Source of the DNA: Sphingobacteriales bacterium
GTDB taxonomy: Bacteria > Bacteroidota > Bacteroidia > Chitinophagales > Chitinophagaceae
Assembly: GCA_023251235.1 (NCBI GenBank)
Contig: JAHEZE010000004.1
Span: 654 to 64,653 of the forward strand
DNA length: 64,000 nt
Direction of reading: 5' to 3'
The notes under the pieces are model-generated. The model was not told the DNA's origin. It did no database searches and saw only the letters and a program-made list of their open reading frames with translations. A program made the position numbers and the translations under genes. Positions 4,462-38,232 of this stretch are shown here, in pieces (the stretch's first letter is position 1; each line of letters begins with the position of its first letter).

Positions 4462-5676
4462 ATGCAGTTTGAAAAAATCATTGGCCAACAGGAAGTAAAA
4501 AAACAATTGGTTGAACTGGTGCAGCACAACCGGCTGAGCCATGCTTTGCTTTTTTTAAGCAAAGAAGGTGGCGGAGCCTTATCACTGGCATTTGCGCTGG
4601 CACAATATATTACCTGTGAAAAGGCAAACCCCAAAAAACAAACAACAAATTCCACTGCCTCACTTTTTGGTGAAGAAAATCCAAGCTCCAACATTCAACA
4701 TTCAACATTTAACAATGACGCCTGTGGTACCTGCCCTTCCTGTACCAAAGCAAACCAACTCATTCATCCCGATATTCATTTCAGTTATCCGGTAGTTACA
4801 AAAAAATCCGGCACGCCCCCATTGAGTACAGATTATATAAGTGAGTGGAGAGAGTTTGTAAAAACATCTCCTTACGCAAATGTTTATGACTGGCTACAGT
4901 TCATCGGTGCGGAAAACAAACAGGGAAATATTACGGCGAATGAATGCAATGACATCATCCACAAACTGAGCCTGAAAAGTTTTGAAAGTGAATACAAGGT
5001 TCTCATCATGTGGATGCCCGAATACCTGGGCAATGAAGGAAATAAATTGCTTAAACTGATTGAAGAGCCACCACCCAATACTTTATTTATATTGGTTGCC
5101 GAAAATGAATCATTGTTGTTGCCCACAATACTCAGCCGCTGTCAATTGATAAAAATTCCTGCCCTTGAAACAGCAGACATTGAAAATGAATTGATAGGAA
5201 AACATAATGCTGCAGCTGCAAAAGCAAGACAAATTGCTGCCACCAGCGAGGGCAATTTCCGCGAAGCATTGCAGCTTTTGGAAAATGCGGAAGAAGATTG
5301 GCAGAGCCTGCTGCGGGAATGGTTGAACTCAATAATTAAAACAGGTCCCATAGCACAAACCAAGTGGGTGGAAGAAACAAGCCGGTTGGGGCGGGAAAAG
5401 CAAAAGCAGTTTCTTCGTTACTTTAATCACTTACTGGAGCAATCAATCCGTTCAAAAATTATGGGCAGTGCCAACCTGCTTCCGGATAATGAAAAAGATT
5501 TTGCAGCCAGGCTGAACAAGCTTGCAGACATTAGTCAGCAGCAGGCAATTATAGAAGAACTGGACAAAGCCACTTATTATATTGAACGCAATGCCAACTC
5601 CAAAATCCTCTTTCATGCCCTTACCATAAAGCTTTATCATATCATTCAGGACAAAATTGTATTTTTGACAACTTGA
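4462..5676 (+). CDS. holB: DNA polymerase III delta-prime subunit
   Basis: ATG at 4462 gives MQFEKIIGQQ. It has an AAA+ clamp-loader fold with a CxxC zinc module (ACGTCPSC), LLKLIEEPP and SRC motifs. A heptamer array lies just upstream of the zinc module. Confidence 0.85.
   Translation: MQFEKIIGQQEVKKQLVELVQHNRLSHALLFLSKEGGGALSLAFALAQYITCEKANPKKQTTNSTASLFGEENPSSNIQHSTFNNDACGTCPSCTKANQLIHPDIHFSYPVVTKKSGTPPLSTDYISEWREFVKTSPYANVYDWLQFIGAENKQGNITANECNDIIHKLSLKSFESEYKVLIMWMPEYLGNEGNKLLKLIEEPPPNTLFILVAENESLLLPTILSRCQLIKIPALETADIENELIGKHNAAAAKARQIAATSEGNFREALQLLENAEEDWQSLLREWLNSIIKTGPIAQTKWVEETSRLGREKQKQFLRYFNHLLEQSIRSKIMGSANLLPDNEKDFAARLNKLADISQQQAIIEELDKATYYIERNANSKILFHALTIKLYHIIQDKIVFLTT
4689..4716 (+). 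repeat. Heptamer tandem array (CAACATT x3 plus TAACAAT) inside holB
   Basis: Read directly: caacatt caacatt caacatt taacaat. It is translated in frame as SNIQHSTFNN. Confidence 0.8.
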
Positions 5677-5688
5677 TAAGTGAGTGGG

Positions 5689-5717
5689 GATTCGTGAATG
5701 GTAAAGTAATGTGAGAG
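5689..5717 (-). repeat. Short degenerate array of the ATTCACS family (reverse orientation) just after the holB stop
   Basis: The sequence gattcgtgaatggtaaagtaatgtgagag has a reverse complement containing ccattcacgaatc, identical to the end of the mutL array at 11419-11435. Confidence 0.5.
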
Positions 5718-5799
5718 ATAATTATTGAGTCATCGTCCGTCTATATATCAAACTTTAGTTGCGTCGCACACTTCGGCACCTGTAATGCTGCTAAGCAAA

Positions 5800-5845
5800 A
5801 TGCTGAATAGCGAAAAAAACGTACAAGGGTGTGACACAACAGAAG
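5800..5845 (+). repeat. 48-nt conserved element, copy C
   Basis: atgctgaatagcgaaaaaaacgtacaagggtgtgacacaacagaag aligns along its length with copies at 40282-40328 and 52236-52283. Confidence 0.8.
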
Positions 5846-5887
5846 CAAAATAGAATTATTACTGCCGGCTTCATAATTATCCCTCCT

Positions 5888-5922
5888 CAATTATTAATTC
5901 TTAATTACTAATTTTTAATTAT
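5888..5922 (+). repeat. Heptamer tandem array (TAATTNN x5) abutting the PSP1 gene start codon
   Basis: caattat taattct taattac taatttt taattat, then ctc ATG at 5926. Confidence 0.8.
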
Positions 5923-5925
5923 CTC

Positions 5926-7187: not shown

Positions 7188-10076
7188 TCATTTTATCGCT
7201 TCAATAATCGCATCCTGAATCTTCCCTCTTACTTTCAGGTCGGAGAGCAAACCATTATTTCTTGTCGGATTCACTCTGTTAGAAAGAAAGATATAAACGA
7301 GATTATATTTCGGATCAACCCAAACACAGGTACCGGTATAGCCGGTATGGCCATAAGTTTGAGATGACACTAATTCAGATGGATAGGGATCTTTTCTTGT
7401 GGCATTATCTTTTTCGGGTTTATCAAAACCAAAACCGCGGCGGCTGTCTTTACTATGATAAGCTGAAAAATAGTTTATAGTTTTTTCATGTAGAAACCGT
7501 TCGCCATTCATTTCGCCGCCATTCAACAGCATTTGATACAACATAGCAAGATCATAAGCGTTGGAAAATAATCCTGCATGACCGGCTACGCCACCGAACA
7601 TACTGGCGCCTTCATCATGCACATCGCCCAGTATGGTTTGTCTGCGGAAATATTTATCTTCTTCCGTAGGAACAATGCGGTTTACAGCAAAACTGTTTCG
7701 CGGTTTAAAGCCGGTGGTTTCTAATCCCATCCTACTATAAAAAGTTTTCTGTACATATTCGTCCAGCGTCATGCCGGTTATAGCTTCTACAACTTTTCCA
7801 AGAAAAATAAAATCATTATCACTGTAAACATATTTTCCTTTTGGCCCTAGTGGACTTTGAAGTATCCGCTTAATGATTGTATCCTGCCAGTTGTTTCGCA
7901 TATACACTTTTTCAGCCACCCTGATAGTATAACCCGGTTTTTCTGTTTCGGAATAAAATCCCGGAAACTGAATTCCGGTAATGGTATCAATCGTCTCTTT
8001 ATAAAAAGGAATAAAGGGGACCAGCCCGGCCTGGTGAAGCAAAATGTCTTCAATTTTCAAGTGAGCCTTATCTGACCCCTTTGTCCATGATAAGTAATCA
8101 CCCAGAGTTTTATTCAAACTAAGCTTCCCCTGTTCATATAACTTCATTACTGAGATAGTAGTAGCAGAAATTTTGGTAACAGAAGCGAGGTCAAAAATAT
8201 TTTCAATGGATTCCGGTTTTTGTTTATCAAACGTGGTGCTGCCAAATGCTTTGTGATAAATTATTTCTCCATCTTTCGCCGCCAGCACCACGCAACCCGG
8301 AAACGCCTTTTTAGCTATGGCATCTTCAACGATTGAATCAATAGCCTGTAATTTATATTTTGACCGGGGGTGAAATGAAGTTGGAAACCTTGTGTTCATA
8401 TTGATTCCATATCCCTGCGGAAAATTGCAAACTCTGATTGGAAGCTTTCCGGATGCCCCTGTTTTTCCTTCCAGCAGGTCTGCTGCTATTTGCTGCGAAA
8501 TATTATCGTCCTGGTAACAGGCAACAAGTGCATTAGCATTACAAAAATTTGTACTTGCCAACACATTCCCAAAAATAAAAGTGATGCTGTTTGGGGTATT
8601 TAGTTTTTCCCATAATGCTATTGAAGCGTTACTGATTCCATAATTATTTGCGGGCCGGTTACTGAAATTATGAATGCCTATCACTACTGCATCATATTTA
8701 CCGGAATTGATAATTTGATAAATAGAATCTGATTTGCCGGTACTGTCTTTCCAGGAAAAAAGTAAAGTATCGGCTTTGTAATTTTCGCAGAGCCTTTTAC
8801 CAAAGTCATTTAAAGTTGTGCTGCCAATTCCAACATAAGCTATTTTCTTGCCTTCTTTCAAGGGAAGTTCAGCTTTCTCTACCGCGTTAATCAAAACTGT
8901 TATTGTTTCTTTTGCCACTTTATTTCTGATGACATCCGTTTTTGCATTAAGGTCATTGATCAGGTTAGTCGTATCAATTGGGTTCCCCTGATTTAATCCT
9001 AATTGATATTTTGCCCTCAACACTTTTTTTACTTTGGTATCAATGTCATTCCAGCTAAGCCTGTTTTCATCAATTGCTTTTTTTACCTCTTCAATTGCCC
9101 CGGGAACACTGGCGGGTAAACACAACATATCATTACCGGCAATTAATGCCTCCACCGAAATAACGCCTCCCGGAAAATATTTAGCCACTCCTTTCATCTC
9201 CAGCGCATCGGTAAAAGTGAGTCCGTTAAACCCAATATCATTTCTTAAAACTCCCGTGATGGTATTTTTTGAAATTGAAGTCGCACGATTTATGCCGGTA
9301 TCAATAGCCGGTACTGAAAGATGAGCGACCATTACACTCCCGATTCCTGCTTTTATCAATTCTCTGAAAGGCATTAATTCATTTGAATCAAGTTGAGCCC
9401 TTGTTTTACTGATCACAGGCAGATCAAGATGTGAATCCACATCCACATCACCATGACCTGGAAAATGTTTGGCGCTTGCCATGATGCCGGCATCCTGCAT
9501 ACCTTTCATGTAAGCAATTCCAAAACGAGCTACTTTGTATTTATTTTCTCCAAATGAACGAAACCCGATAACAGGATTATTTGGATTGTTGTTGATGTCC
9601 ACTACCGGAGCATAATTTACATGAATGCCCATTCTGCGGCATTGTTCGCCAACTGCAATTCCCATTTGATATACTAATTGTTCATCACTCATGGCGCCCA
9701 ATGTTAGCTGATATGGAAATTTTGCAACACTATCTAATCTCATTCCCAATCCCCATTCTCCATCGATGGTAATCATTAATGGAGTTTTGGAAATGCTTTG
9801 ATAAAAATTTGTAAGAACCGCCTGCCTGATGGGTCCGCCCTGGAAAAAACATAAAGCGCCGATATTATATTGTTGAATAAGATCGGTAACCTGTTGTACA
9901 TGGTCAGGGCCGAGATTAGAATGAGCACGGATCACCATTAACTGGGCAATTCTTTCTTCTTTGGTTAATGAGTTAAAAACACTATCTACCCATTGTTCGG
10001 CAGAAAGTTTGCTATTGTATTGTGAAAAAGAAATTGTTGAAATAAAAAATGAAGTAATTAAGAATATTTTTCCCAT
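7188..10076 (-). CDS. Fusion protein: GH3 beta-N-acetylhexosaminidase (NagZ-like) N-terminal domain plus serine beta-lactamase/PBP-like C-terminal domain
   Basis: 962 aa with a signal peptide. The GH3 motifs are KHFPGHGDVDVDSH and ITIDGEWG. The C-terminal part has LASVTK (SxxK) and a YSD (YxN-like) motif. Confidence 0.85.
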   Translation of the reverse strand: MGKIFLITSFFISTISFSQYNSKLSAEQWVDSVFNSLTKEERIAQLMVIRAHSNLGPDHVQQVTDLIQQYNIGALCFFQGGPIRQAVLTNFYQSISKTPLMITIDGEWGLGMRLDSVAKFPYQLTLGAMSDEQLVYQMGIAVGEQCRRMGIHVNYAPVVDINNNPNNPVIGFRSFGENKYKVARFGIAYMKGMQDAGIMASAKHFPGHGDVDVDSHLDLPVISKTRAQLDSNELMPFRELIKAGIGSVMVAHLSVPAIDTGINRATSISKNTITGVLRNDIGFNGLTFTDALEMKGVAKYFPGGVISVEALIAGNDMLCLPASVPGAIEEVKKAIDENRLSWNDIDTKVKKVLRAKYQLGLNQGNPIDTTNLINDLNAKTDVIRNKVAKETITVLINAVEKAELPLKEGKKIAYVGIGSTTLNDFGKRLCENYKADTLLFSWKDSTGKSDSIYQIINSGKYDAVVIGIHNFSNRPANNYGISNASIALWEKLNTPNSITFIFGNVLASTNFCNANALVACYQDDNISQQIAADLLEGKTGASGKLPIRVCNFPQGYGINMNTRFPTSFHPRSKYKLQAIDSIVEDAIAKKAFPGCVVLAAKDGEIIYHKAFGSTTFDKQKPESIENIFDLASVTKISATTISVMKLYEQGKLSLNKTLGDYLSWTKGSDKAHLKIEDILLHQAGLVPFIPFYKETIDTITGIQFPGFYSETEKPGYTIRVAEKVYMRNNWQDTIIKRILQSPLGPKGKYVYSDNDFIFLGKVVEAITGMTLDEYVQKTFYSRMGLETTGFKPRNSFAVNRIVPTEEDKYFRRQTILGDVHDEGASMFGGVAGHAGLFSNAYDLAMLYQMLLNGGEMNGERFLHEKTINYFSAYHSKDSRRGFGFDKPEKDNATRKDPYPSELVSSQTYGHTGYTGTCVWVDPKYNLVYIFLSNRVNPTRNNGLLSDLKVRGKIQDAIIEAIK

Positions 10077-10129
10077 TCAAAAAGTCTTAAGAATAATCAA
10101 CGTATTTTAGCTGCCCAAATTACGAAGAA

Positions 10130-11989
10130 TTGCCAGACAAGATTTTATTATTGCCCGATAACATTGCCAACCAGATAGCGGCCGGTGAAGTAATTCAACG
10201 GCCCGCCAGTGCGGTAAAAGAACTTTTGGAAAATGCAGTAGATGCCGGAGCTAAAGAAATCAAACTTATCATTAATGATGCAGGAAAATCTTTAGTACAG
10301 GTAATAGACAATGGCGGCGGCATGAGTGAAACAGATGCACGAATGAGTTTTGAACGTCATGCTACATCCAAGATTACTACTATTGAAGATTTATTTCATA
10401 TAAAAACAATGGGCTTCCGGGGCGAAGCGCTGGCTTCTATTGCTGCCGTGGCGCAAGTAGAATTAAAAACCAAAAGACTTGAAGACGAAACGGCGACTTA
10501 TATTGAAGTAGAAAATAGTGTTGTAAAAAAACAAGAAGTCATTGCGGCGCCAATCGGAACCAGCATTGCCATGAAGAATTTATTCTTCAATGTGCCGGCA
10601 CGAAGAAATTTTCTGAAAAGTAATAATGCAGAGATGCGTCATATCGTCGATGAATTTACAAGAGTGGCGCTGGCTTTCCCCCATATCTTTTTTTCTTTTA
10701 CAGCAAACAATCAGCAAATCTTTCACCTGGAAGCAGGAAGTATGAAACAGCGGATTCTTCAGTTGCTGGGCAATAACTATAATACAAAACTTGTTGCTGT
10801 AAAAGAAGAAACCGATTACATGAATATTTATGGTTTTGTTGGCAAACCCGAAACTGCTAAAAAGACAAGAGGTGATCAGTATTTTTTTGTCAACAACCGC
10901 TTTATTAAAAGTGCCTACCTGAATCATGCGGTAATGAATGCTTACCAGGAAATGATTACCAAAGACAGTTTCCCGACCTATGTACTTTTTATTGATCTTG
11001 ACCCACAACAGGTGGATGTAAATGTGCACCCGACCAAACAGGAAATAAAATTTGAAGATGAAAAAATTATTTATGCATTTGTACAGGCAGCGGTAAAACA
11101 TTCCCTGGCACAATTCAGCGTTACTCCTACTTTGGATTTTGAATTGGATGCTACCATTCAGCAACTGCCCTCCATTCAGCAACCATTTACTGAAGAAAAA
11201 AAATCGGCTGCTTCTTCATCTTCAATTTTCAAAGGATTTACTGAAAAACATCAGGCACATTTTATTGAGCCAACAAAGAAGAGTGAGCTGAAACACTGGA
11301 GGGAATTCTATGAGGGAGACAAGGAACAAAAAGAAAATATTCAACAATCAACAATCAATGCTCAATTTTCTAGTGAGCTTCCGGACTCTATTCACCATTC
11401 ACCATTCACCATTCACGATTTACGATTCACGAATCTTCTTCAATTACACAACCAATACATTCTTGCGCAAACAGACAATGGATTTATTCTTATCAACCAA
11501 CAACCGGCACATGAAAGAATTATCTATGAACGATTGCAGGAAGCTACTAAAGGAAAGCCCGTTGCAACACAACGAAACATGTTCCCGGTAACTTTTGAAT
11601 TGCCGCCCTCCGATGCAATTATACTGGTAGAATTAATGAATGATCTGCAGCAACTCGGCTATCTGATTGAACCCTTTGGTAAAAATACATTTGTAATACA
11701 AGGCACACCGGCTGATATGGCCCAGGGAAATGAAAAACAGGTGGTCGATTCTTTGCTGGAACAATACAAACATTTCAGTTCGGATTTGAAATTTTCCAAA
11801 AGAGAAAAATTGATCCGTTCGCTGGCATTACAGCAATCTATCAAAGCCGGAAGACAACTTGAAGAAAAAGAAATGCAGTTGTTGGTTGAAGAGTTACTTA
11901 AATGCAAACAACCTAATTCGTCACCAGATGGTAAGCCAACTTACTTAGAATTTAGGAATGAGCAATTGAGCAGGATGTTCGAAGATTGA
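10130..11989 (+). CDS. mutL: DNA mismatch repair protein MutL
   Basis: 619 aa with a GHKL ATPase N-domain (NQIAAGEVIQRPASAVKELLENAVDAG, DNGGGM) and a C-terminal dimerisation domain (QQPAHERIIYE). A TTG start at 10130 is needed to include the conserved N-terminus. The linker contains two heptamer arrays. Confidence 0.95.
   Translation: MPDKILLLPDNIANQIAAGEVIQRPASAVKELLENAVDAGAKEIKLIINDAGKSLVQVIDNGGGMSETDARMSFERHATSKITTIEDLFHIKTMGFRGEALASIAAVAQVELKTKRLEDETATYIEVENSVVKKQEVIAAPIGTSIAMKNLFFNVPARRNFLKSNNAEMRHIVDEFTRVALAFPHIFFSFTANNQQIFHLEAGSMKQRILQLLGNNYNTKLVAVKEETDYMNIYGFVGKPETAKKTRGDQYFFVNNRFIKSAYLNHAVMNAYQEMITKDSFPTYVLFIDLDPQQVDVNVHPTKQEIKFEDEKIIYAFVQAAVKHSLAQFSVTPTLDFELDATIQQLPSIQQPFTEEKKSAASSSSIFKGFTEKHQAHFIEPTKKSELKHWREFYEGDKEQKENIQQSTINAQFSSELPDSIHHSPFTIHDLRFTNLLQLHNQYILAQTDNGFILINQQPAHERIIYERLQEATKGKPVATQRNMFPVTFELPPSDAIILVELMNDLQQLGYLIEPFGKNTFVIQGTPADMAQGNEKQVVDSLLEQYKHFSSDLKFSKREKLIRSLALQQSIKAGRQLEEKEMQLLVEELLKCKQPNSSPDGKPTYLEFRNEQLSRMFED
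11338..11365 (+). repeat. Heptamer array (NNNTCAA x4) in the mutL linker
   Basis: tattcaa caatcaa caatcaa tgctcaa, translated as NIQQSTINAQ. It shares the exact 14-mer aatcaatgctcaat with the array at 31739-31752. Confidence 0.75.
11390..11438 (+). repeat. Heptamer array (ATTCACC x3, ATTCACG, ATTTACG, ATTCACG, AATCTTC) in the mutL linker
   Basis: Read directly. The six clean units total 42 nt (14 codons) and are translated as IHHSPFTIHDLRFT, immediately before the C-terminal domain. Confidence 0.9.
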
Positions 11990-12066
11990 ATTAATAATGA
12001 ATAATTAAAAATTAAGAATTGCTTCGCTGACTGAAATTGTTAATTATTAATTTTTAATTCTTAATT
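11988..12066. repeat. Inverted pair of heptamer arrays, (NAATTAA)x5 - 14-nt loop - (NTTAATT)x4, between convergent mutL and dacB
   Basis: The left arm is 11988-12022 and overlaps the mutL stop. The right arm is 12037-12066 and encodes the last residues and stop of dacB (QLRIKN*). The arms are mutually complementary, so this could be a bidirectional AT-rich terminator hairpin. Confidence 0.8.
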
Positions 12067-13381
12067 GATGTATGAATTTCTCCACCGCCCTTCTTACTGC
12101 TGTTGCAGATGCCTGATGATTATTAACTAAAGTCGAAAAAATAAGTAGCTTTCCTTTTTTAGTGTACATATATCCACTGAGAGCCACTACACCACCCAGC
12201 GTTCCGGTTTTAGCATAAATAAAACTACTATCAGATTTGTAGTAGTTGCTGATAGTTCCTTCGCCCCCGGTTGGTAAAACGACTTTGATTCTATCCATTC
12301 CAAATTCATTTTTCATTTTATCAAGGATAGAAACAAAATCCTGTGGAGTAAAAAGATTGTAACGGCTAAGTCCTGATCCATCCACCCATCTTGGTTTTTG
12401 CGGCAGATCTTTAAAATCTGTTTTAAGTAATGTATCTATAATTTTTTCATCGTTCATTACACCCAGCTTTTCATTACTCACCATCAGCAAACTTTGTTCA
12501 GCAAAAAAATTATCACTATTATGCATCATAGGTTTTAAGAGGGAGTCCGTAGATTGTGTTTTGATATAGCGGGCCGACAAATCATTTTTTTTAAATTGTT
12601 TGAAGAACAATTCATCATTCATTAACGATATAGATTTCCCAATTGTATCTGGCAACAATTCCAAAGCTGCCTTTATTCCATCGGTAACAAAAGGAACATA
12701 AAGCTCTTTATATTTTTCCTTGCTCTGAAGCAGTTCAAATACATTTTCACCAATTTTTCTTTTTACATCAAATTTTTTTGTCTCTTCAACACTTCTGAAA
12801 TTTACTTCCCAATTAATTTCAGGAACTGAATATATCGTTGTCGGTTCCTTTCCGTTTTCGCCCTCCTGCACCCATTTCAGAACATTCCCATATACTGGCA
12901 TAGGGCTTCTTTCCGCCATATAACTTTCATTGTAATCATTCCAAGACCAACCAGATCCAAGTGCTTCTGATTTCCACATGACCTCATTGATGTATATCTT
13001 CTTTTTTGACTGTTTTAAAAAATCAAATGCCGGTTGATGTTTAAAATCCGGGTGAAGAAGTGTAGGATCGCCTTCAGGTAAAATAAATAAAGCTGTATCA
13101 TTTTCTATTGTCACAAAACACTTCAAACTATCTCCCAAATATTTCATCGCAGCATAACAGGTAGGAATTTTTGTATTACTGGCAGGCACAAAATATTTAT
13201 CGCCCTGGTAATTGTACCAATATTTTCCGGTTGCCGGTTCATAAATGCTGATGCCAACATGAGCAGTGAGGAGTGAGCTGTCTTTTAATACAAGTTGTTT
13301 GGCCGACTTAGAAATTTTCTGTTGTACTGAACAGGATGTAAGAATTAATAATGAATAATTAATAATTAATAATTTTTTCAT
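12047..13381 (-). CDS. dacB: D-alanyl-D-alanine carboxypeptidase/endopeptidase (PBP4, peptidase S13)
   Basis: It has an SNTK active-site motif and KTGTL near the C-terminus. The start is probably the ATG at 13381, giving MKKLLIINYSLLILTSC with a lipobox. The ORF track's 13390 start is also an ATG. Confidence 0.8.
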   Translation of the reverse strand: MKKLLIINYSLLILTSCSVQQKISKSAKQLVLKDSSLLTAHVGISIYEPATGKYWYNYQGDKYFVPASNTKIPTCYAAMKYLGDSLKCFVTIENDTALFILPEGDPTLLHPDFKHQPAFDFLKQSKKKIYINEVMWKSEALGSGWSWNDYNESYMAERSPMPVYGNVLKWVQEGENGKEPTTIYSVPEINWEVNFRSVEETKKFDVKRKIGENVFELLQSKEKYKELYVPFVTDGIKAALELLPDTIGKSISLMNDELFFKQFKKNDLSARYIKTQSTDSLLKPMMHNSDNFFAEQSLLMVSNEKLGVMNDEKIIDTLLKTDFKDLPQKPRWVDGSGLSRYNLFTPQDFVSILDKMKNEFGMDRIKVVLPTGGEGTISNYYKSDSSFIYAKTGTLGGVVALSGYMYTKKGKLLIFSTLVNNHQASATAVRRAVEKFIHQLRIKN

Positions 13382-13413
13382 TTCCAGCATTCTTAATTTT
13401 CAATTCTTAATTA
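13343..13413. repeat. Inverted pair of heptamer arrays bracketing the dacB start codon
   Basis: (AATTAAT-like)x5 at 13343-13377 encodes the signal-peptide core. (CTTAATT/TTCAATT)x3 lies at 13392-13413. The loop at 13378-13391 holds both candidate ATGs. 13343-13374 matches 11989-12020 at 30 of 32 positions. Confidence 0.8.
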
Positions 13414-14550
13414 ACTTCTTTCCTGTGCCCGCAACCAGCGTTCAGGAATTTCATTACTGCTGGCAAGTAAATAATCTTTATAGCTGCATGCGATAAAACG
13501 TTTATCAGGAAGCTGCATCCACCAGCGGCCGGTTTTTTTGCTTTGCAGAAAAGTAGTGTCCACCTCAGCAAAAGCCATGTGGTATTCAGAAAAAGAATCT
13601 CTTTCATCCAGCTTGGCTTCTTTTCTTCCACGACTTCTGCCATCTAATAAATACCAAAGCATCTGGCTTATTTGTTTAGCAGTAAGATCATGCAGGTCAT
13701 TATCCGGGTCATAACCATAAATACCGATTGTATTTACATTCGGGCTCATACCGGCATAGCGCATCAATACACAACTTTCTTCGCCGTTAAAACCGTTTGG
13801 TGAATTTAAATTAGCCGGTGCATATGCATGTGCAAGAGCAGAAATATCAAAACTGAAAAGTTGTGAATTGCGAATCACCGGTTCCATTTCATCAATACTC
13901 TCTTTTACATGCCCCACACGAAAACAGTCGAAGCGCAGCTTATCCAATGTTTCCAGCATCCGCGGATGCACATAATAACTCTGGAAACCTATATGATTGT
14001 AATGCCTCACATAGTTTGGTTCACCTGTAAGCATTTCCATTAAAAAATTATCGCAGCGGAAATCAGAATCAAGATTCAGATCAATCAAAGCATCTACATT
14101 GGTTACTTCAACGATGGATTTGTTTGCTTCATACGCATAATACTGAGCCAGCGTAAGATCATGTGAGCCCCCAAGAAGGATTACTGTTTTTCTTTCATTG
14201 ATCAGTTCATTGATAACCGTTCTTAATGCGGCATAGGTATCAGCAAGATCAGCTCCTTTACGAAGATTGCCCAAATCTGCTATGTGAAGATCCTGGTGCC
14301 AGAAATATAACTGGTAAAACTGGCGGCGGATAGCATCCGGAGCAGCACTATATGCAAGATGATGACCATTGCCTCTTTGTTCACCACAACCGATAAAGAC
14401 GAGATCAGCCTCATCTATGTCTGGAAAGCTTTCTTCATCATGAACTTTTATATTGGAACCTATTGTACCTTCTTTAAAATCCTGGTCAAATGAAAGTTCA
14501 CCCTTATTGATGGGCGAAAGGAAGTCGGCGATGTTAAGAAAGTCGGACAT
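13411..14550 (-). CDS. Arginase/formimidoylglutamase family protein
   Basis: 379 aa. It shows a ureohydrolase-fold signature (LLGGSHDLT, and DAL.D acidic clusters). Confidence 0.65.
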   Translation of the reverse strand: MSDFLNIADFLSPINKGELSFDQDFKEGTIGSNIKVHDEESFPDIDEADLVFIGCGEQRGNGHHLAYSAAPDAIRRQFYQLYFWHQDLHIADLGNLRKGADLADTYAALRTVINELINERKTVILLGGSHDLTLAQYYAYEANKSIVEVTNVDALIDLNLDSDFRCDNFLMEMLTGEPNYVRHYNHIGFQSYYVHPRMLETLDKLRFDCFRVGHVKESIDEMEPVIRNSQLFSFDISALAHAYAPANLNSPNGFNGEESCVLMRYAGMSPNVNTIGIYGYDPDNDLHDLTAKQISQMLWYLLDGRSRGRKEAKLDERDSFSEYHMAFAEVDTTFLQSKKTGRWWMQLPDKRFIACSYKDYLLASSNEIPERWLRAQERS

Positions 14551-14632
14551 TGGTACTATTTGACAACAAACTTACAAGAAAACAGGCAGTATTTGCTTGC
14601 TTCAATTCTCATATTATGCTTATCTTGGGGTA

Positions 14633-15040
14633 TTGAAAAAAACTTTAGCATCCATATTAACAATATCATTTTTCGTAAGTACCATCATTATGCCTTACAG
14701 CAATTTTGATGACACCCGACTACTTTCTTCACTATATCGTGAAAGTCAGCAGGAAGATACTGACATGAATATTGGCGAGTTTATTTTTGAGAAACTGCTT
14801 ACCATCGGTAAACTTTTCGAGGGAAAAGAAGAAGATGCTCCAATAATTCCTTTTCATAATCAGCATACTCCTCCACAGGTGCAGATGCTTCAATCGGGAT
14901 CCTTATACTGTTTGAAAATAAATACTCCGGAGAAAGATAAAGAGCAAGTAGCTGATAAACCCACCTGCTCTTTTAGAGAAAATAAATTCTCTTTTGATTA
15001 TCATGCTATAGTTTTTCACCCGCCGGCATTAATAGCCTGA
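14633..15040 (+). CDS. Hypothetical membrane-anchored or secreted protein
   Basis: An in-frame TTG at 14633 gives (M)KKTLASILTISFFVSTIIM, which looks like a signal or anchor. I recognise no family. It lies upstream of the OM receptor/efflux cluster. The start is uncertain; the ORF track uses a TTG at 14597. Confidence 0.35.
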   Translation: MKKTLASILTISFFVSTIIMPYSNFDDTRLLSSLYRESQQEDTDMNIGEFIFEKLLTIGKLFEGKEEDAPIIPFHNQHTPPQVQMLQSGSLYCLKINTPEKDKEQVADKPTCSFRENKFSFDYHAIVFHPPALIA

Positions 15041-15104
15041 CTTTTTTAAAAAGTCCGCATGGATTAAGAAATATCAACGTCTAACTTAAATAAAAACAGA
15101 AACA

Positions 15105-15530
15105 ATGAATAAAAATATCATTGTGCTGACGCTTGCTTTTATTGTGAGCCTGTCAGTCAATTCACAATCATTAATAATTCCGGATGCAGTTACTGCCGCT
15201 TTTAAAAGCAAATTTCCAACTGCTACCAACATAAAATGGGGAAAGGAAAATGCCACCGAGTATGAAGCTGAATTTAAATTGAACAATTCAGCTGTATCGG
15301 CCAATTTCAAAACAGATGGCAGATGGGTGGAAACTGAAACTACTATTCCTGTTACTGATCTGCCAGCAGCAGTAAGTATAGCCATTAATACAAAATATCC
15401 CGGTGCAGTTATTAATAAAACTGAAAAAACAGAAATGCCCGGTAATAAAATAATTTATGAGGCAGCTATTACAATAAACGGCAAGAAAAAGGGAGTAGAG
15501 CTAAAACCTGACGGCAGTTTTATAAAATAG
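15105..15530 (+). CDS. PepSY-like (DUF2874-type) periplasmic protein
   Basis: 141 aa with a signal peptide and a repeated module (P.AV..AF..KFP.A..IKW..E...YE). Confidence 0.6.
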   Translation: MNKNIIVLTLAFIVSLSVNSQSLIIPDAVTAAFKSKFPTATNIKWGKENATEYEAEFKLNNSAVSANFKTDGRWVETETTIPVTDLPAAVSIAINTKYPGAVINKTEKTEMPGNKIIYEAAITINGKKKGVELKPDGSFIK

Positions 15531-15539
15531 CATATGAAA

Positions 15540-15576
15540 AATTGCAGGTATTCATCAACTACGGGTATCTGCAATT
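15540..15576. promoter_or_regulatory. 11-bp-arm inverted repeat (AATTGCAGGTA - N15 - TATCTGCAATT) upstream of the OM receptor gene
   Basis: Read directly. It has one G-U position and sits 14 nt before the ATG at 15590 and 10 nt after the PepSY stop. It could be an operator or a weak terminator. Confidence 0.35.
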
Positions 15577-15589
15577 AAATTTTATTATA

Positions 15590-18013: not shown

Positions 18014-18058
18014 TAAACATGACGAAAAACTATCTTTAATCTTTTAAAAAAAATTATT

Positions 18059-19072: not shown

Positions 19073-19085
19073 ATATTTTTTTCCG

Positions 19086-20336: not shown

Positions 20337-20346
20337 AATTTTATGT

Positions 20347-21276: not shown

Positions 21277-21279
21277 TTC

Positions 21280-24324: not shown

Positions 24325-24364
24325 TTCGTTTAAAGGGCTGGGTGGTCTTGCTTATCTTTGCCGC

Positions 24365-25396
24365 ATGGAGCATCTATTACAACAGATTGAAGAATACAAA
24401 AAAGAAATTGCCGCTTTTTCAGGAGCAGATGAAAAAACTATTGAAGAATTCCGCATCAAATGGCTTGGCACAAAAGGTTTGGTGAAAACCATCATGGGTG
24501 AAATGAAAAATGTGCCCAATGAAAAGAAAAAAGAGTTTGGACAGATACTAAATGAATTCAAACAATTCACCGAAGCAAAGTATGAGGAACTAAAAGCATC
24601 CCTGAACTCTGAACTCAGAACTAAGAACTCAGAACTTGATTTATCTCTTCCCGGCGATCCAATGCCGCTGGGTAGTCGTCATCCCATCAGCCTTATGACG
24701 AATAGGATTATCTCCATCTTTCAGCGATTGGGATTTGCGGTAGCCGAAGGGCCTGAGATTGAAGATGACTGGCACAATTTCACGGCGTTGAATTTACCCG
24801 AGCATCATCCTGCACGGGATATGCAGGATACATTTTATGTACAGCAAAATCCCGATTGGCTATTACGTACACATACCAGCAACATACAGATAAGGGAAAT
24901 GAAGAAAGGCAAATTGCCCATTCGTATTATTTGTCCGGGCCGTGTGTACCGCAATGAAACAGTAAGTGCAAGAAGTCATTGCTTCTTTCACCAGGTGGAA
25001 GGCTTATATATTGATGAAAATGTTTCATTCGCCGATCTGAAACAGACACTTTACTTTTTTGCCAAAGAAATGTATGGCCACGATGTAAAGATTCGTTTCC
25101 GTCCATCATATTTTCCTTTCACAGAACCCAGCGCTGAGATGGACATCAGTTGCATGCTTTGCAAAGGCGAAGGCTGTAATGTTTGCAAAAAAACCGGCTG
25201 GCTCGAAATTCTTGGCAGCGGCATGGTGCACCCGAATGTTTTATCCAACTGCGGCATTGACTCCAACAAATACACAGGTTTTGCATTTGGTATGGGTATT
25301 GAAAGACCTGCGTTATTAAAATATGGTATTAACGATATCCGATTGTTCAGTGAAAATGATATACGGTTTTTAAAACAGTTTACGAGTGCCGTTTAA
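24365..25396 (+). CDS. pheS: Phenylalanine--tRNA ligase alpha subunit
   Basis: 343 aa with class II motifs (HPARDMQDTFY, FRPSYFPFTEPSAE, GFAFGMGIER). There is a heptamer array in the N-terminal linker. Confidence 0.95.
   Translation: MEHLLQQIEEYKKEIAAFSGADEKTIEEFRIKWLGTKGLVKTIMGEMKNVPNEKKKEFGQILNEFKQFTEAKYEELKASLNSELRTKNSELDLSLPGDPMPLGSRHPISLMTNRIISIFQRLGFAVAEGPEIEDDWHNFTALNLPEHHPARDMQDTFYVQQNPDWLLRTHTSNIQIREMKKGKLPIRIICPGRVYRNETVSARSHCFFHQVEGLYIDENVSFADLKQTLYFFAKEMYGHDVKIRFRPSYFPFTEPSAEMDISCMLCKGEGCNVCKKTGWLEILGSGMVHPNVLSNCGIDSNKYTGFAFGMGIERPALLKYGINDIRLFSENDIRFLKQFTSAV
24602..24636 (+). repeat. Heptamer array (CTGAACT x2, CAGAACT, AAGAACT, CAGAACT) inside pheS
   Basis: Read directly. It is translated as LNSELRTKNSEL, between the N-terminal coiled coil and the catalytic core. 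Confidence 0.85.
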
Positions 25397-29212: not shown

Positions 29213-29217
29213 TACAC

Positions 29218-29345
29218 GTTGAAAGGTTAAATGTCGTTTAAGAGTTTAAAGTTTTTCAAAACTGAAATTTCCTGACGGTTATATGGAATATAAAAATATA
29301 AAAACTCAACTTTAAACCTTTAAACTATTCAACCCTTAAACCTTC
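29218..29345. repeat. Inverted pair of ~8-nt-period arrays (GTTnAAAG-type, spacer, CTTTAAAC-type) between convergent genes
   Basis: The left array at 29218-29251 reads gttgaaag gttaaatgtc gtttaaga gtttaaag. The right array at 29303-29345 reads aactcaac tttaaac ctttaaac tattcaac ccttaaac cttc. The right end overlaps the lpxD stop and last codons. Confidence 0.7.
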
Positions 29346-30647: not shown

Positions 30648-30679
30648 TCTCTCCTGGTTTTCCGGGGGAGATTTTTTTT
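30648..30679 (+). terminator. Orphan rho-independent terminator with no upstream plus-strand CDS of 60 aa or more
   Basis: A 10-bp stem (tctctcctgg / ccgggggaga, two G-U pairs) with loop tttt, followed by T8. It is preceded by the 6-bp hairpin gggaaatttatttccc at 30606-30621. Confidence 0.6.
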
Positions 30680-31731: not shown

Positions 31732-31766
31732 TTTCAATAATCAATGCTCAATACTCAAGATTCAAT
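31732..31766 (+). repeat. Heptamer array (NNTCAAT x5) overlapping the gldH start region
   Basis: tttcaat aatcaat gctcaat actcaag attcaat. Both candidate ATGs (31744 and 31765) lie inside it. Confidence 0.8.
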
Positions 31767-33995: not shown

Positions 33996-34694
33996 TTACA
34001 AATCACCCAACTGAGGCCTCATGATAATTTCTTCCACACAGGCGCCGGGTGAAAGCTGGCTGGCCGTATAAATCATTTTAGCTACATCCTCCGGTTCCAT
34101 AATCCGGTGAGCAGTGTTGTCAAAGTTGCCCCATGAATCGGTAAGCACGGCCCCGGGGGAAACTGATGTTACTTTAATATTAAAACTTTTCATTTCTTCC
34201 CGCAAATTTTTACTAAATCCCAAAACTGCGTGTTTGCTGATACTGTAAGCGCCGCCATCCTTATAAGCATGATGGGAGGCAATGGAACAAATATTGAAAA
34301 TATGCCCCGTCCTCCTTTCCATCATTTTAGGTAAAAGAATTCTTGTAAGATGATAAGCGCTGTAAAGATTTACCGCCATCTGGCTTTCCAGTAATCCTTC
34401 GGCTTCATTATAAACACTGCCGGGCTTAAAAAGACCAGCATTGTTTACTAATATATCCGGTACACATTGCCCCAGACACCATTCACCAAATTTATGGGAT
34501 TGAATTTTATCACTGAGGTCAGCTGGTCTTGCTTTTATGATTACGGAAGAATATTTCGTAGCCAACTCATCCATCGTTTTGTACAATTTCACTTCATTGC
34601 GGCTGCATAAGTAAAGATGATGACCATTGACAGCAAAAATTTCAGCAATTGCTTTTCCAATTCCTTGTGATGCTCCGGTTATAACGATATTCAT
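33996..34694 (-). CDS. Short-chain dehydrogenase/reductase
   Basis: 232 aa with TGASQGIG, NNAG and YSISK motifs. Confidence 0.85.
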   Translation of the reverse strand: MNIVITGASQGIGKAIAEIFAVNGHHLYLCSRNEVKLYKTMDELATKYSSVIIKARPADLSDKIQSHKFGEWCLGQCVPDILVNNAGLFKPGSVYNEAEGLLESQMAVNLYSAYHLTRILLPKMMERRTGHIFNICSIASHHAYKDGGAYSISKHAVLGFSKNLREEMKSFNIKVTSVSPGAVLTDSWGNFDNTAHRIMEPEDVAKMIYTASQLSPGACVEEIIMRPQLGDL

Positions 34695-34696
34695 AC

Positions 34697-34770
34697 CTAC
34701 GAATTTAGAACTACGAAGTACGAACTTTTTTCACTTCTATCCTTACTTCTTACTTCGTACTTCGTATTTT
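34697..34770. repeat. Inverted pair of heptamer arrays (NTACGAA x4 / NTACTTC-GTACTTC x4) filling a divergent intergenic region
   Basis: ctacgaa tttagaa ctacgaa gtacgaa, spacer, ttacttc ttacttc gtacttc gtatttt. tacgaagtacgaa is the exact reverse complement of ttcgtacttcgta. Confidence 0.85.
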
Positions 34771-34776
34771 GCATTT

Positions 34777-35472
34777 ATGTCTTATCGTCATCTCTTCTTC
34801 GACCTCGATCATACCCTCTGGGATTTTGAAGCTAATGCAAGGGTTACTATGCTGGAATTGTTTGACTCCCTGCAATTAAAAGATAAGGGGGTTTATGATT
34901 TTGAAAAATTTTACAGAATATATCTTGTTAACAATGAAAAACTATGGGAACATTACCGGAATGGCTTAATTAAACAGGATGAGCTTCGAATTAAACGCAT
35001 GCGTCTTTCCCTGCTCGAATTTAAAATAGCCGATGAAATGCTGGCTAATGAAATGAATGTCCGTTTTCTTGATCTGTTACCAACACGAACTATCCTCTTT
35101 CCTTATACAATTGAAATTCTTACTTATCTGTCGGATAAAAAATATGAACTGCATCTCATCACTAATGGTTTTGAAAAAACTCAAAACAGCAAGCTGAAAC
35201 ATTCGGGGTTAGGAAAATTTTTTAAGGAAGTGATCACATCAGAAGCGAGTAATAGTTTAAAGCCCAATAAAGAGATATTCGACTTTGCATTCCGGAAAAC
35301 AGGGGCTTCTAAAAAAGAAAGTATCATGCTTGGTGATAGTATTGACGTAGATATTATTGGCGCTATCAATGCCGGGATTGACCAGGTTTTTATCAATCAC
35401 CATGGCGTTGCTACTGATATAAAACCTACTTATACTGTGAATTCATTAAAAGAATTGGAAGATATTTTTTAA
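34777..35472 (+). CDS. HAD family hydrolase (YjjG-like nucleotidase type)
   Basis: ATG at 34777 gives MSYRHLFFDLDHTLWDF (DxDxT motif). The C-terminal motif is GDSIDVDIIGA. The ORF track's upstream extension to 34627 overlaps the SDR gene and the repeat. Confidence 0.85.
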   Translation: MSYRHLFFDLDHTLWDFEANARVTMLELFDSLQLKDKGVYDFEKFYRIYLVNNEKLWEHYRNGLIKQDELRIKRMRLSLLEFKIADEMLANEMNVRFLDLLPTRTILFPYTIEILTYLSDKKYELHLITNGFEKTQNSKLKHSGLGKFFKEVITSEASNSLKPNKEIFDFAFRKTGASKKESIMLGDSIDVDIIGAINAGIDQVFINHHGVATDIKPTYTVNSLKELEDIF

Positions 35473-35480
35473 TATACTAT

Positions 35481-36137: not shown

Positions 36138-36159
36138 TGACAAATAGTTGGAGAGCAAA

Positions 36160-36188: not shown

Positions 36189-36237
36189 AATAAAGCTTCA
36201 GTCAAGATAGCTAAGTATTGAATAAATTTATGTGTTG

Positions 36238-37125
36238 TTATTTTATAAAAAGTAATACATAGAACCAAACTGCAGGTATCGCTAAGAGCATAGAATCAAA
36301 GCGATCAAGAAAACCCCCGTGCCCCGGCATAAGGTCGCCGCTGTCTTTTACACCCGCCATTCGCTTTAGTTTGGATTCAAGCAAATCGCCAAAGGTGCCA
36401 ATAATTGAAGCAATTGCTGCTATTGTAGCCAGAAAGTAGTTAATATAATTTTCGTTTAAAGAATAAAATGTTTTCATAAATAAAAAACCAACTACAACTA
36501 TACAAAGAATTATACCCCCAATTGTTCCCTCCCATGTTTTTTTAGGTGAAATTCCCGAAAGATGTGTTTTCCCGATTAACGAGCCAACTACATAAGCCAG
36601 CGTATCATTGATCCAGATACTTGCTACTATTACAACAGGAATAAAATTACCTGCAGTAATAAATCCTGTGTCATTAATATGTACATCTATTTCCTGGTAT
36701 AAATTCATCATCAACCCCCAACTCAAAGAAATATAAAACAATCCCAAAGCAGCTGCGCCAAATTTTTTCCAATTAATTTTTTTGCCTTGGAAGATCCCCA
36801 ATACAAGGAAAACAAACCCAGCCACAGAAACCGGAAAGGAAAAATTTTCTTTAAGGCTAAAATTATTTATTTTAAATACCGGCCCGCAAAACCAGAGTAT
36901 AACAGCATAGCCCAACAGCATAAATGCAAGGCGGGTATAACGATGATAAATCGTATTATTAATTTTTTCCTGCAGGTTGAAATACTCCCACCAGCAACCA
37001 AAATGAATGATGGAAAACAAAATCAAAAAACTCCACTGATTCCACAGTAAGCCAGTCAACATTACCGCTGCAAATACGATTGCCGTCAGTGTTCTTGTTT
37101 GAAATGTTTTCCAGTTAAAGGCCAT
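36238..37125 (-). CDS. cdsA: Phosphatidate cytidylyltransferase
   Basis: 295 aa, polytopic, with SPKKTWEG and GHGGFLDRFDS motifs. Confidence 0.9.
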   Translation of the reverse strand: MAFNWKTFQTRTLTAIVFAAVMLTGLLWNQWSFLILFSIIHFGCWWEYFNLQEKINNTIYHRYTRLAFMLLGYAVILWFCGPVFKINNFSLKENFSFPVSVAGFVFLVLGIFQGKKINWKKFGAAALGLFYISLSWGLMMNLYQEIDVHINDTGFITAGNFIPVVIVASIWINDTLAYVVGSLIGKTHLSGISPKKTWEGTIGGIILCIVVVGFLFMKTFYSLNENYINYFLATIAAIASIIGTFGDLLESKLKRMAGVKDSGDLMPGHGGFLDRFDSMLLAIPAVWFYVLLFIK

Positions 37126-37166
37126 GAGAGCAGATGATAATTTATTAGTGGACAGATAATAGTTCT

Positions 37167-38120
37167 TTAAACGGAAAATGGATTATCGTTTTCAATTTTA
37201 TCTCCGGCATAAATAGTTTCATAACTGGCAGTTGATCTTTTTTTCATATTGTAAATAACAGCAGCAACCAACATGGCACTTACTAATGCCGCAATAACCT
37301 GATTGCCGGCATTGAATACAGGGGTTTCCTGGTCCGCATAAGAAGGATTGAAATAAACCATCACCACTGCAAAGCCATCATATACAAAATGCGCAAGTAT
37401 AGCGGGCCACAAACTGCCGCTGTACCAATAAATCATCCCCAACAGTATGCCAAGAATAAATCTTGGAATAAACCCATAAAATTGGAAATGAATTGCTGAA
37501 AAAAGAAATCCTGTTATTATTATTCCTATCCATACACTTTTAAACCATTTAATAAAAATCCTTTGCAATACTCCCCTGAAAAAAAGCTCTTCACCAATGC
37601 CTGCAAAACCTGCGATGAAAAGAAGATTCATCAGCAGATCTTTTACTGTATTTTTCTTTAATAAAAAAGCGACTTGTTTCGCGGCAGACTCTTCACTTTC
37701 TTTCATCCATTTACCAAGGGCAGTAGATTCAGGGATAAGCCGGTGATTAATAATTCCGGTCCATTCCACAAATGGAATTGCCACAATTAATACTGCTGCA
37801 CCTAATAAAAAATAAAGCGGAATAGATGATTTTAAACCTAAATATCTTAATGGATTTGCATCAGAGAAATAAGCAAAAAGAAAACAGGGAATAACAAATA
37901 AGCTCAGAAACTGGATCAACAGTAAACCTCTGACTATTGTGAGTGTAACAGGGCTTTCATAATCCCATTTTTCAGTATCCGCCATAGCCAGCATACTTAA
38001 GCCGGTTACTTTGGAAAGAATAAGCATGCCGACCATACTGAGTATGATAAAAGAGCCAAAAGCCAGTCCTATAAACATTAAGAATTGCGCCCATGCCGGT
38101 CTTGTTTTTAAATACATCAT
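37167..38120 (-). CDS. CPBP family intramembrane glutamic endopeptidase (CAAX protease type)
   Basis: It has EELFFRG and FSAIHF/HFVYD motifs. The likely start is the ATG at 38120. The ORF-track extension to 38183 is a TTG reading through the palindromic element. Confidence 0.8.
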   Translation of the reverse strand: MMYLKTRPAWAQFLMFIGLAFGSFIILSMVGMLILSKVTGLSMLAMADTEKWDYESPVTLTIVRGLLLIQFLSLFVIPCFLFAYFSDANPLRYLGLKSSIPLYFLLGAAVLIVAIPFVEWTGIINHRLIPESTALGKWMKESEESAAKQVAFLLKKNTVKDLLMNLLFIAGFAGIGEELFFRGVLQRIFIKWFKSVWIGIIITGFLFSAIHFQFYGFIPRFILGILLGMIYWYSGSLWPAILAHFVYDGFAVVMVYFNPSYADQETPVFNAGNQVIAALVSAMLVAAVIYNMKKRSTASYETIYAGDKIENDNPFSV

Positions 38121-38160
38121 AGTTAGTAACTCCCGTTTTTGATTTGTAAATTTGCAGGTT

Positions 38161-38182
38161 CCTGCCGAATGGCAGGCAGGCA
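38161..38182. repeat. GC-rich palindromic element copy 2 (cctgccgaatggcaggcaggca), intergenic
   Basis: Read directly, between the CPBP protease gene and dusB. Confidence 0.85.
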
Positions 38183-38190
38183 AAAGTAAT

Positions 38191-38232
38191 CATTGAAAAT
38201 TGAACATTGATAATTGTGTATTGAACATTTAA
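38191..38232 (+). repeat. Heptamer array (NATTGAA x6) abutting the dusB start codon
   Basis: cattgaa aattgaa cattgat aattgtg tattgaa catttaa, then a ATG at 38234. It is the reverse-complement family of the TCAAT arrays. Confidence 0.8.

Follow-up and report, generated by a model that had tools for sequence, protein, structure and literature searches.

Tandem arrays of heptanucleotides became known from cyanobacteria in 1990, and their over-representation in many bacteria was found in 2007. We know of no explanation of why the period is seven nucleotides (nt) or of what these repeats do. Long simple sequence repeats (LSSRs) have 5–11-nt units, with heptanucleotides predominant, and a patchy phylogenetic distribution, according to later summaries of the original survey (Mrazek 2007 via PMC4679880, PMC4692102). 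Slippage tied to the footprint of a polymerase has been proposed for the heptameric simple sequence repeats (SSRs) (PMC4692102, citing Mrazek 2007). In Xanthomonas and Nostoc, heptameric SSRs are over-represented in intergenic regions and lie between corresponding genes of related species, where their length and sequence vary and inverted pairs are included (PMC4692102). Direct repeats of TAACTGA, described in Beggiatoaceae, some Cyanobacteria and five Bacteroidetes, often end a few nt upstream of start codons and are thought to have spread horizontally (MacGregor 2015; PMC4679880). Here, we analyze degenerate 7-nt arrays in a 64-kb stretch of DNA from a soil Sphingobacteriales bacterium of the family Chitinophagaceae (positions 654 to 64,653 of contig JAHEZE010000004.1, assembly GCA_023251235.1; hereafter, the window), together with 160 related loci totaling 2.2 Mb, 80 around mutL and 80 around yicC, which are referred to by L-numbers. 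The closest matches to the window MutL, with identities of at most 83%, come from Chitinophagaceae metagenome-assembled genomes (MAGs) and Terrimonas isolates, and the window encodes the gliding lipoprotein GldH, as identified by Pfam.

Heptamer arrays of this kind are already known, and none of the units of the described systems is used here. The short tandemly repeated repetitive (STRR) sequences of Calothrix and Nostoc, as cited in PMC4692102, likewise form several 7-nt unit families per genome at many, mostly non-coding loci, with no known function. They differ from the present arrays in their host, which is a heterocystous cyanobacterium rather than a Chitinophagaceae/Terrimonas-like bacterium, and the arrays described here are short (3–6 units), degenerate and, in many cases, located within linkers of conserved proteins. 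Among 2.25 Mb of sequence, the STRR units CCCCAGT and TTGGTCA never occur in tandem and CAACAGT does so once; none of the three does in the window. ACAGTCA, a rotation of the STRR3 unit CAACAGT, is the unit of five arrays in the relatives (L001 at 2338, L019 at 4149, L024 at 16031, and L032 at 3065 and 15964), which could be a coincidence or reflect a preferred heptamer. With the LSSR class, as far as later summaries describe it, the arrays share the 7-nt-specific statistical excess (16 versus 2.0±1.5 in the window) and a patchy phylogenetic distribution. That survey predates the genomes of Chitinophagaceae. The arrays here are imperfect, and they form hot spots over some 160 loci in which units turn over while length stays constant.

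Like the Xanthomonas GGGAATC and Nostoc GGGGA(C/T)T repeats (PMC4692102), the arrays vary in length and sequence, include inverted pairs and show no link to gene function. However, those repeats have one dominant G-rich unit capable of forming G-quadruplexes, whereas here there are many families, mostly AT-rich or mixed and lacking G-quadruplex potential, which also occur in coding loops. As with the TAACTGA repeats, several arrays end close to start codons: those at 5889–5922, 31734–31766, 34744–34766 and 38192–38235 stop 0–10 nt away. The TAACTGA repeats consist of a single unit, however, and neither the window nor 2.25 Mb of relatives contains it in tandem. The hairpin-forming inverted repeats between convergent genes recall repetitive extragenic palindromic (REP) sequences, the REP-derived REPINs and miniature inverted-repeat transposable elements (MITEs), and GC-rich REP-like palindromes occupy the mutL/dacB junction of some relatives. 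Within the 64 kb examined, the array pairs differ from such elements in that they share no loop or ends, are not near-identical and have arms with an internal 7-nt periodicity. A preliminary description of this DNA, made from the sequence alone, knew of no equivalent reported for Bacteroidota. This has to be softened, given the TAACTGA heptamers of five Bacteroidetes. For Chitinophagaceae, a literature search covering few subscription journals yielded no account of heptamer arrays. Compared with the earlier systems, three features have fuller documentation here: arrays of constant length in loops of essential genes, hot spots with unit turnover over some 160 loci, and palindromes that run from codon to codon.

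Period-7 excess in the window and in related loci

Arrays were called with Tandem Repeats Finder (TRF) at a score of at least 30, and 100 dinucleotide-preserving shuffles of the window served as the null model. The window contains 16 TRF rows of period 7, compared with 2.04±1.53 (maximum 6) in the shuffles, and five rows of period 14, compared with 0.5. There is no excess at periods 8–13 and only a slight one at 6 and 15. In a test independent of TRF, which counts loci with at least 85% self-identity at lag d across 3d nt, seven loci were found at lag 7, none at lags 6 and 8–12, and none in the 100 shuffles. The units are imperfect copies, with TRF matches of 65–100% (70–94% for most arrays with at least three copies). 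The G+C content of the window is 36–40%, and several arrays are very AT-rich. All arrays of the window fall within 4.7–38.2 kb; the last 26 kb (38300–64000) hold no period-7 array with at least three copies, despite many spacers of 60–500 nt. Rfam and tRNA scans of the window and of the holB/PSP1 spacer gave no match, so that no known RNA accounts for any array. A scan for sigma-70 promoters, with a model not built for those of Bacteroidota, found no more sites than in the shuffles.

The same excess recurs in the related loci. The 80 species-level mutL loci (1.35 Mb) contain 310 period-7 rows, versus 24–31 after shuffling, and 235 arrays of at least three copies, versus 2–6; the 80 yicC loci from metagenomes (0.84 Mb) contain 121 rows versus 15–25 and 96 such arrays versus 1–4. 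In these relatives, periods 6, 8 and 9 are raised just 1.8- to 5-fold, period-14 rows number 87 against 2–7 in shuffles, and GC-containing units, such as GGAGTCA and ACTCACC, are common. Array intensity ranges from 0 to 12 per 10 kb among loci, and the set includes the genomes of isolates, namely Terrimonas sp. R1, T. pollutisoli and T. ferruginea. Because the excess is repeated across 160 loci, it is a trait of the lineage and not of the window alone. The claim that the arrays exceed chance low complexity, made in the preliminary description, is thus borne out by comparison with dinucleotide-shuffled controls, of TRF arrays in the window and in its relatives and of lag-7 loci in the window. 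Array density outside MutL does not significantly track the identity of MutL to that of the window (rho 0.17, p 0.15), nor are arrays in the MutL linker a significant marker of array-rich genomes (p 0.14).

Placement was assessed for 167 arrays, after exclusion of the MutL interior, a segment common to all loci of the mutL set. Mostly intergenic arrays number 80, about six times the 12.7±3.5 expected from random placement, while 62 are no more than 30 nt from a stop codon (10.7 expected) and 67 no more than 30 nt from the start of a longest open reading frame (ORF; 10.9 expected). The positional bias seen earlier at starts and stops is therefore real as an enrichment, but much of it follows from the residence of arrays in spacers, which are short. 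Arrays in coding sequence occupy segments that tolerate change: the linkers of MutL and PheS, a loop of HolB and the signal peptide of DacB.

Arrays recur at fixed positions with different units

We identified the gene contexts of the arrays from Pfam domain matches and translations. In the holB-like ORF (DNA polymerase III delta'; 4432–5676), TRF finds 3.7 copies of CAACATT at 4689–4714 on the plus strand. They encode SNIQHSTFNN within a variable loop directly ahead of a CGxCxxC zinc module, so that this array lies within the gene and not, as had been thought, at a start codon. The length of this loop is about constant among relatives, 15 of the 40 syntenic ones have a period-7 array there, and the units differ: CAACATT in the window, CTCACGT in L003 and CAACTCA/CGACTCA in L022.

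The inter-domain linker of MutL carries two plus-strand arrays in the window. One, of TCAACAA/TCAATNN units, spans 11338–11372 (TRF row at 11341–11358; lag-7 identity 0.71) and corresponds to approximately amino acids (aa) 403–414; the other, with 5.9 copies of ATTCACC at 11390–11430 (TRF score 61), encodes IHHSPFTIHDLRFT at aa 420–433. Period-7 arrays are present in this linker in 54 of 79 relatives. Two families recur, one GAGTCGG-like near aa 395 and the other ATTCACC/ACTCACC/CTCACGA-like near aa 425, and a CCACTCA unit is also seen. These families drift as entire arrays, that is, they undergo concerted evolution. Only these linker arrays are clearly limited to a clade, with 42 of the 49 relatives at 74% or more MutL identity possessing them, as opposed to 4 of 24 below that value. 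In PheS, 4.7 copies of GAACTCA at 24604–24636 (plus strand) encode LNSELRTKNSEL, the 12-aa linker that joins the N-terminal arm to the catalytic core. This linker stays at 12 aa among relatives of about 90% identity, in which it is written with GAACTCA (window and L083), GTCAACG (L094), CATCCAG (L109) or TCTCACG (L141). L119, at 80% identity, has CAACATC, and more distant relatives have ordinary sequence. Since the PheS linker keeps its 12 aa, the HolB loop keeps its length and the MutL linker lengthens by only 0.28 nt per nt of array, the arrays mostly overwrite existing sequence and add little length.

Similar turnover is seen in spacers. An AATTATT-type array of 4.9 copies (5889–5922, plus strand), which can also be read as period 14, ends 3 nt ahead of the ATG (5926) of a PSP1-domain gene, and period-7 arrays lie upstream of PSP1 in 12 of 47 relatives. 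In the same 249-nt holB/PSP1 spacer, the preliminary description had placed a further array, of GTGAATG-like units, at 5689–5730 on the plus strand; it yields no TRF row at the score threshold, its lag-7 identity is 0.40 against about 0.3 at other lags, and we rejected it. The spacer between the stop codon of the yicC-like gene and the start of gldH is filled by 4.7 copies of TCAATNN (31734–31766, plus strand). Many relatives have CAAGGNA/TCAATNN arrays beginning at the yicC stop codon, and a TRF array is present in 13 of 73. Upstream of the dus gene, 6.3 copies of ATTGAAA, the reverse complement of the TCAAT family, fill the spacer up to the Dus ATG (array 38192–38235; ATG at 38234), divergent from a CAAX-protease-like gene, and relatives have AATTAAT-family arrays at this junction. 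Across the array positions of the window other than the MutL linker, 7–47% of syntenic relatives have an array, mostly with another unit; the background chance of an array in a segment of such size, estimated from the overall density, is about 2–3%.

Thus, the same loci carry arrays across relatives without being perfectly conserved, and the arrays are renewed faster than neutral sequence decays. Within the window, the TCAAY family is found at four loci (the holB loop at 4689, the MutL linker at 11338, yicC/gldH at 31734 and, as its complement, CAAX/Dus at 38192) and the AATT family at five. The presence of one unit family in both coding and non-coding DNA fits a process that is independent of local function.

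Inverted pairs and their folding

Adjacent arrays form 20 inverted pairs and only 3 direct ones. In the window, an inverted-repeat search finds four adjacent inverted pairs, one fewer than reported initially (11988/12035, 13339/13389, 29236/29314 and 34692/34747), and these are the longest inverted repeats there. Three of the four, all but the 13339 pair, fold better than shuffled sequences on one or both strands.

Between the convergent mutL and dacB genes, a stop-to-stop palindrome (11988–12067; inverted repeats I2/I3) consists of 4.6 copies of AATTAAT (11989–12020) and 4.6 copies of AATTATT (12035–12067), which are 88% complementary and separated by a 14-nt loop. The second arm provides the final codons of dacB (QLRIKN and the stop). 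Folding of 11985–12072 is predicted at −12.1 kcal/mol (z −1.9) for the plus strand and at −11.6 kcal/mol (z −4.6) for the minus strand. At the other end of dacB, which is read from the minus strand, a pair at 13339–13412 (I11) surrounds the start codon, which lies in the loop. One arm (13339–13374) codes for the hydrophobic core of the signal peptide of DacB, a lipoprotein, and the other (13389–13412) lies between the stop codon of an arginase-family gene and the dacB start. The fold of this region (13335–13415) is weak in the window (z −1.2/−0.4; repeat estimate z −1.15); the corresponding pair folds strongly in L033, L036 and L037 (z −5 to −6).

The pair at 29218–29344 (I10/I15) separates a convergent CarboxypepD_reg-domain gene and lpxD and is built of GTTTAAAG/CTTTAAAC-type units. 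It had been described as two octamer arrays, at 29218 and 29303. TRF supports period 8 only at 29310–29344, the 29218–29255 part is seen as its inverted partner, and both are of mixed 7/8-nt period rather than purely octameric. The fold of 29213–29340 reaches −20.4/−27.7 kcal/mol (z −2.0/−2.9), and similar GTTTAAAG pairs are present in L109, L119, L127 and L135. The longest inverted repeat of the window (I1) is a start-to-start palindrome at 34692–34779 between divergent SDR and HAD hydrolase genes. It runs from the CAT at 34692–34694 to the ATG at approximately 34777, with arms of CTACGAA-type units (34697–34726) and 3.3 copies of TACTTCG (34744–34766). Its fold (34690–34781) reaches −18.1/−20.2 kcal/mol (z −5.1/−4.4), and a TACGAAG pair is also present in L105, L133 and L144. 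Relatives with an 18–43-nt divergent spacer at this junction (L104, L107, L114, L117, L130, L136, L137 and L142) have a single motif, AATTCGTA(N)TTTGC, by the HAD start; these short-spacer relatives retain only this one TTCGTA(N)TTTGC motif. The TACTTCG array of the window (34744–34779 region) resembles tandem copies of part of AATTCGTA(N)TTTGC, a motif that is similar to the TAnnTTTG −7 box of Bacteroidota promoters. The single arrays at 38192 (z +1.15) and 31734 do not fold.

The arginase-family/dacB junction has one hairpin in common among eight species. In its outer stem, CAGGA from the last codons of the upstream gene pairs with TCCTG from the dacB lipobox codons; the inner stems are the arrays, whose units differ by species. 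In the stem, 90.1% of cells are paired, compared with 84.4±1.2% after shuffling and 38–56% with the partner slid, and 12 cells show double changes versus 6.0 in shuffles, in a structure that was derived from the same small, related set used for the covariation test. An ATT is conserved every 7 nt across the signal-peptide codons. This covariation is the best evidence that some pairs stay complementary, which could be due to selection on the stem or to template switching between its arms.

A role of the inverted pairs in transcription termination had been proposed. A scan of the window for intrinsic terminators, which have a short G+C-rich stem followed by a T run at the 3' end of a gene, does not list the AT-rich array hairpins. 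Canonical terminators with a GC-rich stem and T run are present at 4404–4427 and 30648–30671, showing that ordinary intrinsic terminators are used at some gene ends beside the AT-rich array hairpins. A conserved terminator at the mutL/dacB junction was considered and rejected (median fold z −1.8; 27 of 72 relatives without a spacer). In those 27 relatives the spacer is shorter than 35 nt, in some cases with overlapping stop codons, and the element at this junction is therefore not required. The remaining relatives have either heptamer pairs there or palindromes, of the TAAGAG ... CTCTTAGC type or GC-rich and REP-like.

Stability between strains and internal structure of the arrays

A contig from another sample (L081) is 99.75% identical to the window across 8158–24550 (16.4 kb) and allows a comparison at the strain level. 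None of the 23 single-nucleotide polymorphisms (SNPs) falls within the seven arrays covered, and none of these arrays changes its unit number. In L081, 18 nt (FFTLKK) are inserted in frame into the signal peptide of DacB, near 13370 and adjoining an array; this is the sole indel. The arrays are not hypermutable.

Neighboring units of an array are 0.794 alike and units two apart 0.804. Lag-14 identity exceeds lag-7 identity in 117 arrays, with the reverse in 79 (p=0.02). Together with the enrichment of period-14 rows, this points to duplication of two-unit blocks. An apparent 21-nt superperiod (0.851 for units three apart versus 0.794) proved to be a TRF edge artefact, as it is equal in intergenic arrays and disappears in coding arrays of at least five units.

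Origin of the arrays

The excess in 160 loci and the occurrence of different units at the same positions make a lineage-level process the simplest reading, in line with the generating mechanism that the preliminary description had invoked. We give about an even chance to the view that these are heptanucleotide arrays of the STRR/LSSR type, produced by a lineage-wide tendency of DNA to misalign in a 7-nt register where it is weakly constrained, with some inverted pairs kept as stems. In Escherichia coli, loops of about 7 nt or its multiples escape mismatch repair by MutS/MutL. During replication or repair synthesis, a nascent strand would misalign by 7 nt or a multiple. Some events would gain or lose whole units or two-unit blocks, and others would realign after merely copying a neighboring unit onto the next, such that weakly constrained sequence would be rewritten again and again into a degenerate 7-nt run, mostly with no net change in length. 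Selection would then filter the sites at which arrays survive, namely gene spacers, a signal peptide, and those loops and disordered linkers that belong to conserved proteins. Where an array forms one arm of a hairpin, its partner might be held complementary by selection on the stem or by template switching, which would yield the stop-to-stop, start-to-start and stop-to-start palindromes; any role of the hairpins is putative.

Several observations weigh against this account. It leaves the reason for a period of 7 unaccounted for, and since a single 7-nt step is a frameshift, arrays in essential genes would need multi-step or realigning events. No event of the proposed type separates the two strains, whose sole indel is 18 nt long and not a 7-nt unit. 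Recent one-unit slippage would predict that neighbors are more alike than units two apart, which they are not. The two most variable unit positions hold 78% of mismatches, compared with 67% under uniform decay; unit pairs drawn from different loci agree at 6 or more of 7 positions in 6.6% of cases, compared with 2.6% for random heptamers of the same composition; and 9.0% of unit pairs within one locus match, compared with 6.7±1.1% on permutation. This restricted vocabulary and the mismatch pattern fit block duplication plus orthology, and core-motif selection or copying between loci would also fit. Finally, the covariation in the arginase-family/dacB stem suggests constraint on at least that pair.

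Some of these observations are those expected if the arrays were functional cis-elements, either platforms for a protein with a footprint of about 7 nt (a cold-shock or S1-like protein with an oligonucleotide-binding (OB) fold, or a nucleoid protein) or regulatory stems in 5' untranslated regions (UTRs) and at 3' ends; in either case they would act on translation initiation, termination or mRNA stability. A conserved unit core with variable positions beyond uniform decay, a restricted and weakly genome-specific unit vocabulary, the adjacency of arrays to start and stop codons, the 20 to 3 preponderance of inverted pairs, the pairing and double changes of the arginase-family/dacB stem (90.1% versus 84.4%; 12 versus 6.0) and its ATT every 7 nt through signal-peptide codons all speak for such elements, as does a count on the sequences in which the PheS arrays of the window and L083 are more alike than their flanks. 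Binding of CspB, one protein per heptamer, has been discussed for the TAACTGA repeats (PMC4679880). Yet a regulatory role shared by spacers and by the coding loops of MutL, HolB and PheS, in which the same families occur, is hard to picture. Units at one site differ among close relatives, at most sites the majority of syntenic relatives have no array (and 27 of 72 lack a spacer at mutL/dacB), the stems are AT-rich and absent from the terminator list, the single arrays at 38192 and 31734 do not fold, and duplication of two-unit blocks can also generate a core-plus-variable pattern. We regard a cis-regulatory origin as rather unlikely overall. Also unlikely, in our estimation, is that the lineage has an active process of its own that turns weakly constrained DNA into 7-nt periodic sequence at constant length. 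Such a process would work by templated patching at an offset of 7 or by copying between arrays, not by the usual gain and loss of units, even in holB, pheS and mutL, with a small genome-wide vocabulary of units and with the start-to-start and stop-to-stop palindromes as a further product.

Descent from small dispersed palindromes of the REPIN/MITE type, spread by a transposase or by ectopic gene conversion, would make the 7-nt period a property of the element. The mutL/dacB junction does hold different palindromes in different species, as is typical of insertion hot spots, and the same unit families appear at non-orthologous sites of different genomes. A 20-mer, AATTAATAATGAATAATTAA (with up to two mismatches), flanks dacB on both sides in the window, recurs in L004 and L005, and is found at a non-orthologous junction in L141 and L113. 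However, the dacB-proximal copy owes its conservation to its coding for the signal peptide, the pairs have loops and flanks that are mutually unrelated, copies within the 64 kb are not near-identical, no target-site duplications or element ends were seen, and the 20 window proteins scanned against Pfam include no transposase. Single arrays of constant length in coding loops are also hard to obtain by insertion, and on balance this origin appears improbable. Tandem repeats near start codons and within ORFs might bring to mind contingency loci, in which hypermutable SSRs switch expression through gain or loss of units. In most arrays, though, the imperfection of the units (65–94% matches) would suppress slippage, unit number is unchanged in seven arrays between strains that differ by 23 SNPs in 16.4 kb, mutL, holB and pheS, which host arrays, are housekeeping or essential genes rather than surface or restriction genes, and a 7-nt step within these ORFs is a frameshift, which makes switching very improbable. 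The G+C content of the window (36–40%) and the AT-richness of several arrays would speak for chance low complexity in AT-rich spacers or for an assembly artefact, a reading that is nonetheless extremely improbable: dinucleotide shuffles never attain the observed counts, strong enrichment is limited to period 7 and its multiple 14, GC-containing units are common, and arrays are found in independent isolate genomes, MAGs and metagenome assemblies.

Other repeat elements near the arrays

The holB/PSP1 spacer also contains a long-range inverted repeat, GTTGCGTCGCACAC ... GTGTGACACAAC, at 5740–5860, with no Rfam match and a fold z of −1.0. Repeats of this type are found in L003, L070 (near 2282), L077 (near 849) and L079, and the motif TTCGTTGCGTCGCA recurs in other spacers of the relatives; this could be either a repeat element or a small RNA that lacks annotation. 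The window has four copies of the GC-rich palindrome CCTGCC(N)GGCAGGCAGG (1442–1462, 38161–38180, 44886–44902 and 50104–50123) and one CCTAAGCCCCCTTTAGGGGTTGGGG element at 49726–49750. REP-like families of the CCTGCC(N)GGCAGGCAGG and CCTAAGCCCCCTTTAGGGGTTGGGG kinds occupy the mutL/dacB junction in L014, L016, L023, L028, L034, L035, L048 and L051. At 2280–2381, the window has a purine-rich/pyrimidine-rich palindrome with the shared ends TAAGAG ... CTCTTAGC and an irregular 7–10-nt periodicity. In L003, L027, L038, L045, L057 and L078, a palindrome with these ends lies at the mutL stop codon. That the junction varies between genomes suggests a family of dispersed elements.

Implications

Arrays that reach into start and stop codons, signal peptides and C-terminal tails can mislead gene-start calls and alignments in these genomes. 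If the active, lineage-specific rewriting at constant length considered above were true, there would be a polymerase or repair activity dedicated to it, or a trans-acting factor recognizing the units, yet to be identified. Because the same sites, including those in mutL, holB and pheS, carry arrays of different units at near-constant length, a mutational process can be separated from local function better here than in the earlier systems. The lineage is cultivable, Terrimonas isolates carry the arrays, and the same positions can be compared over dozens of species.

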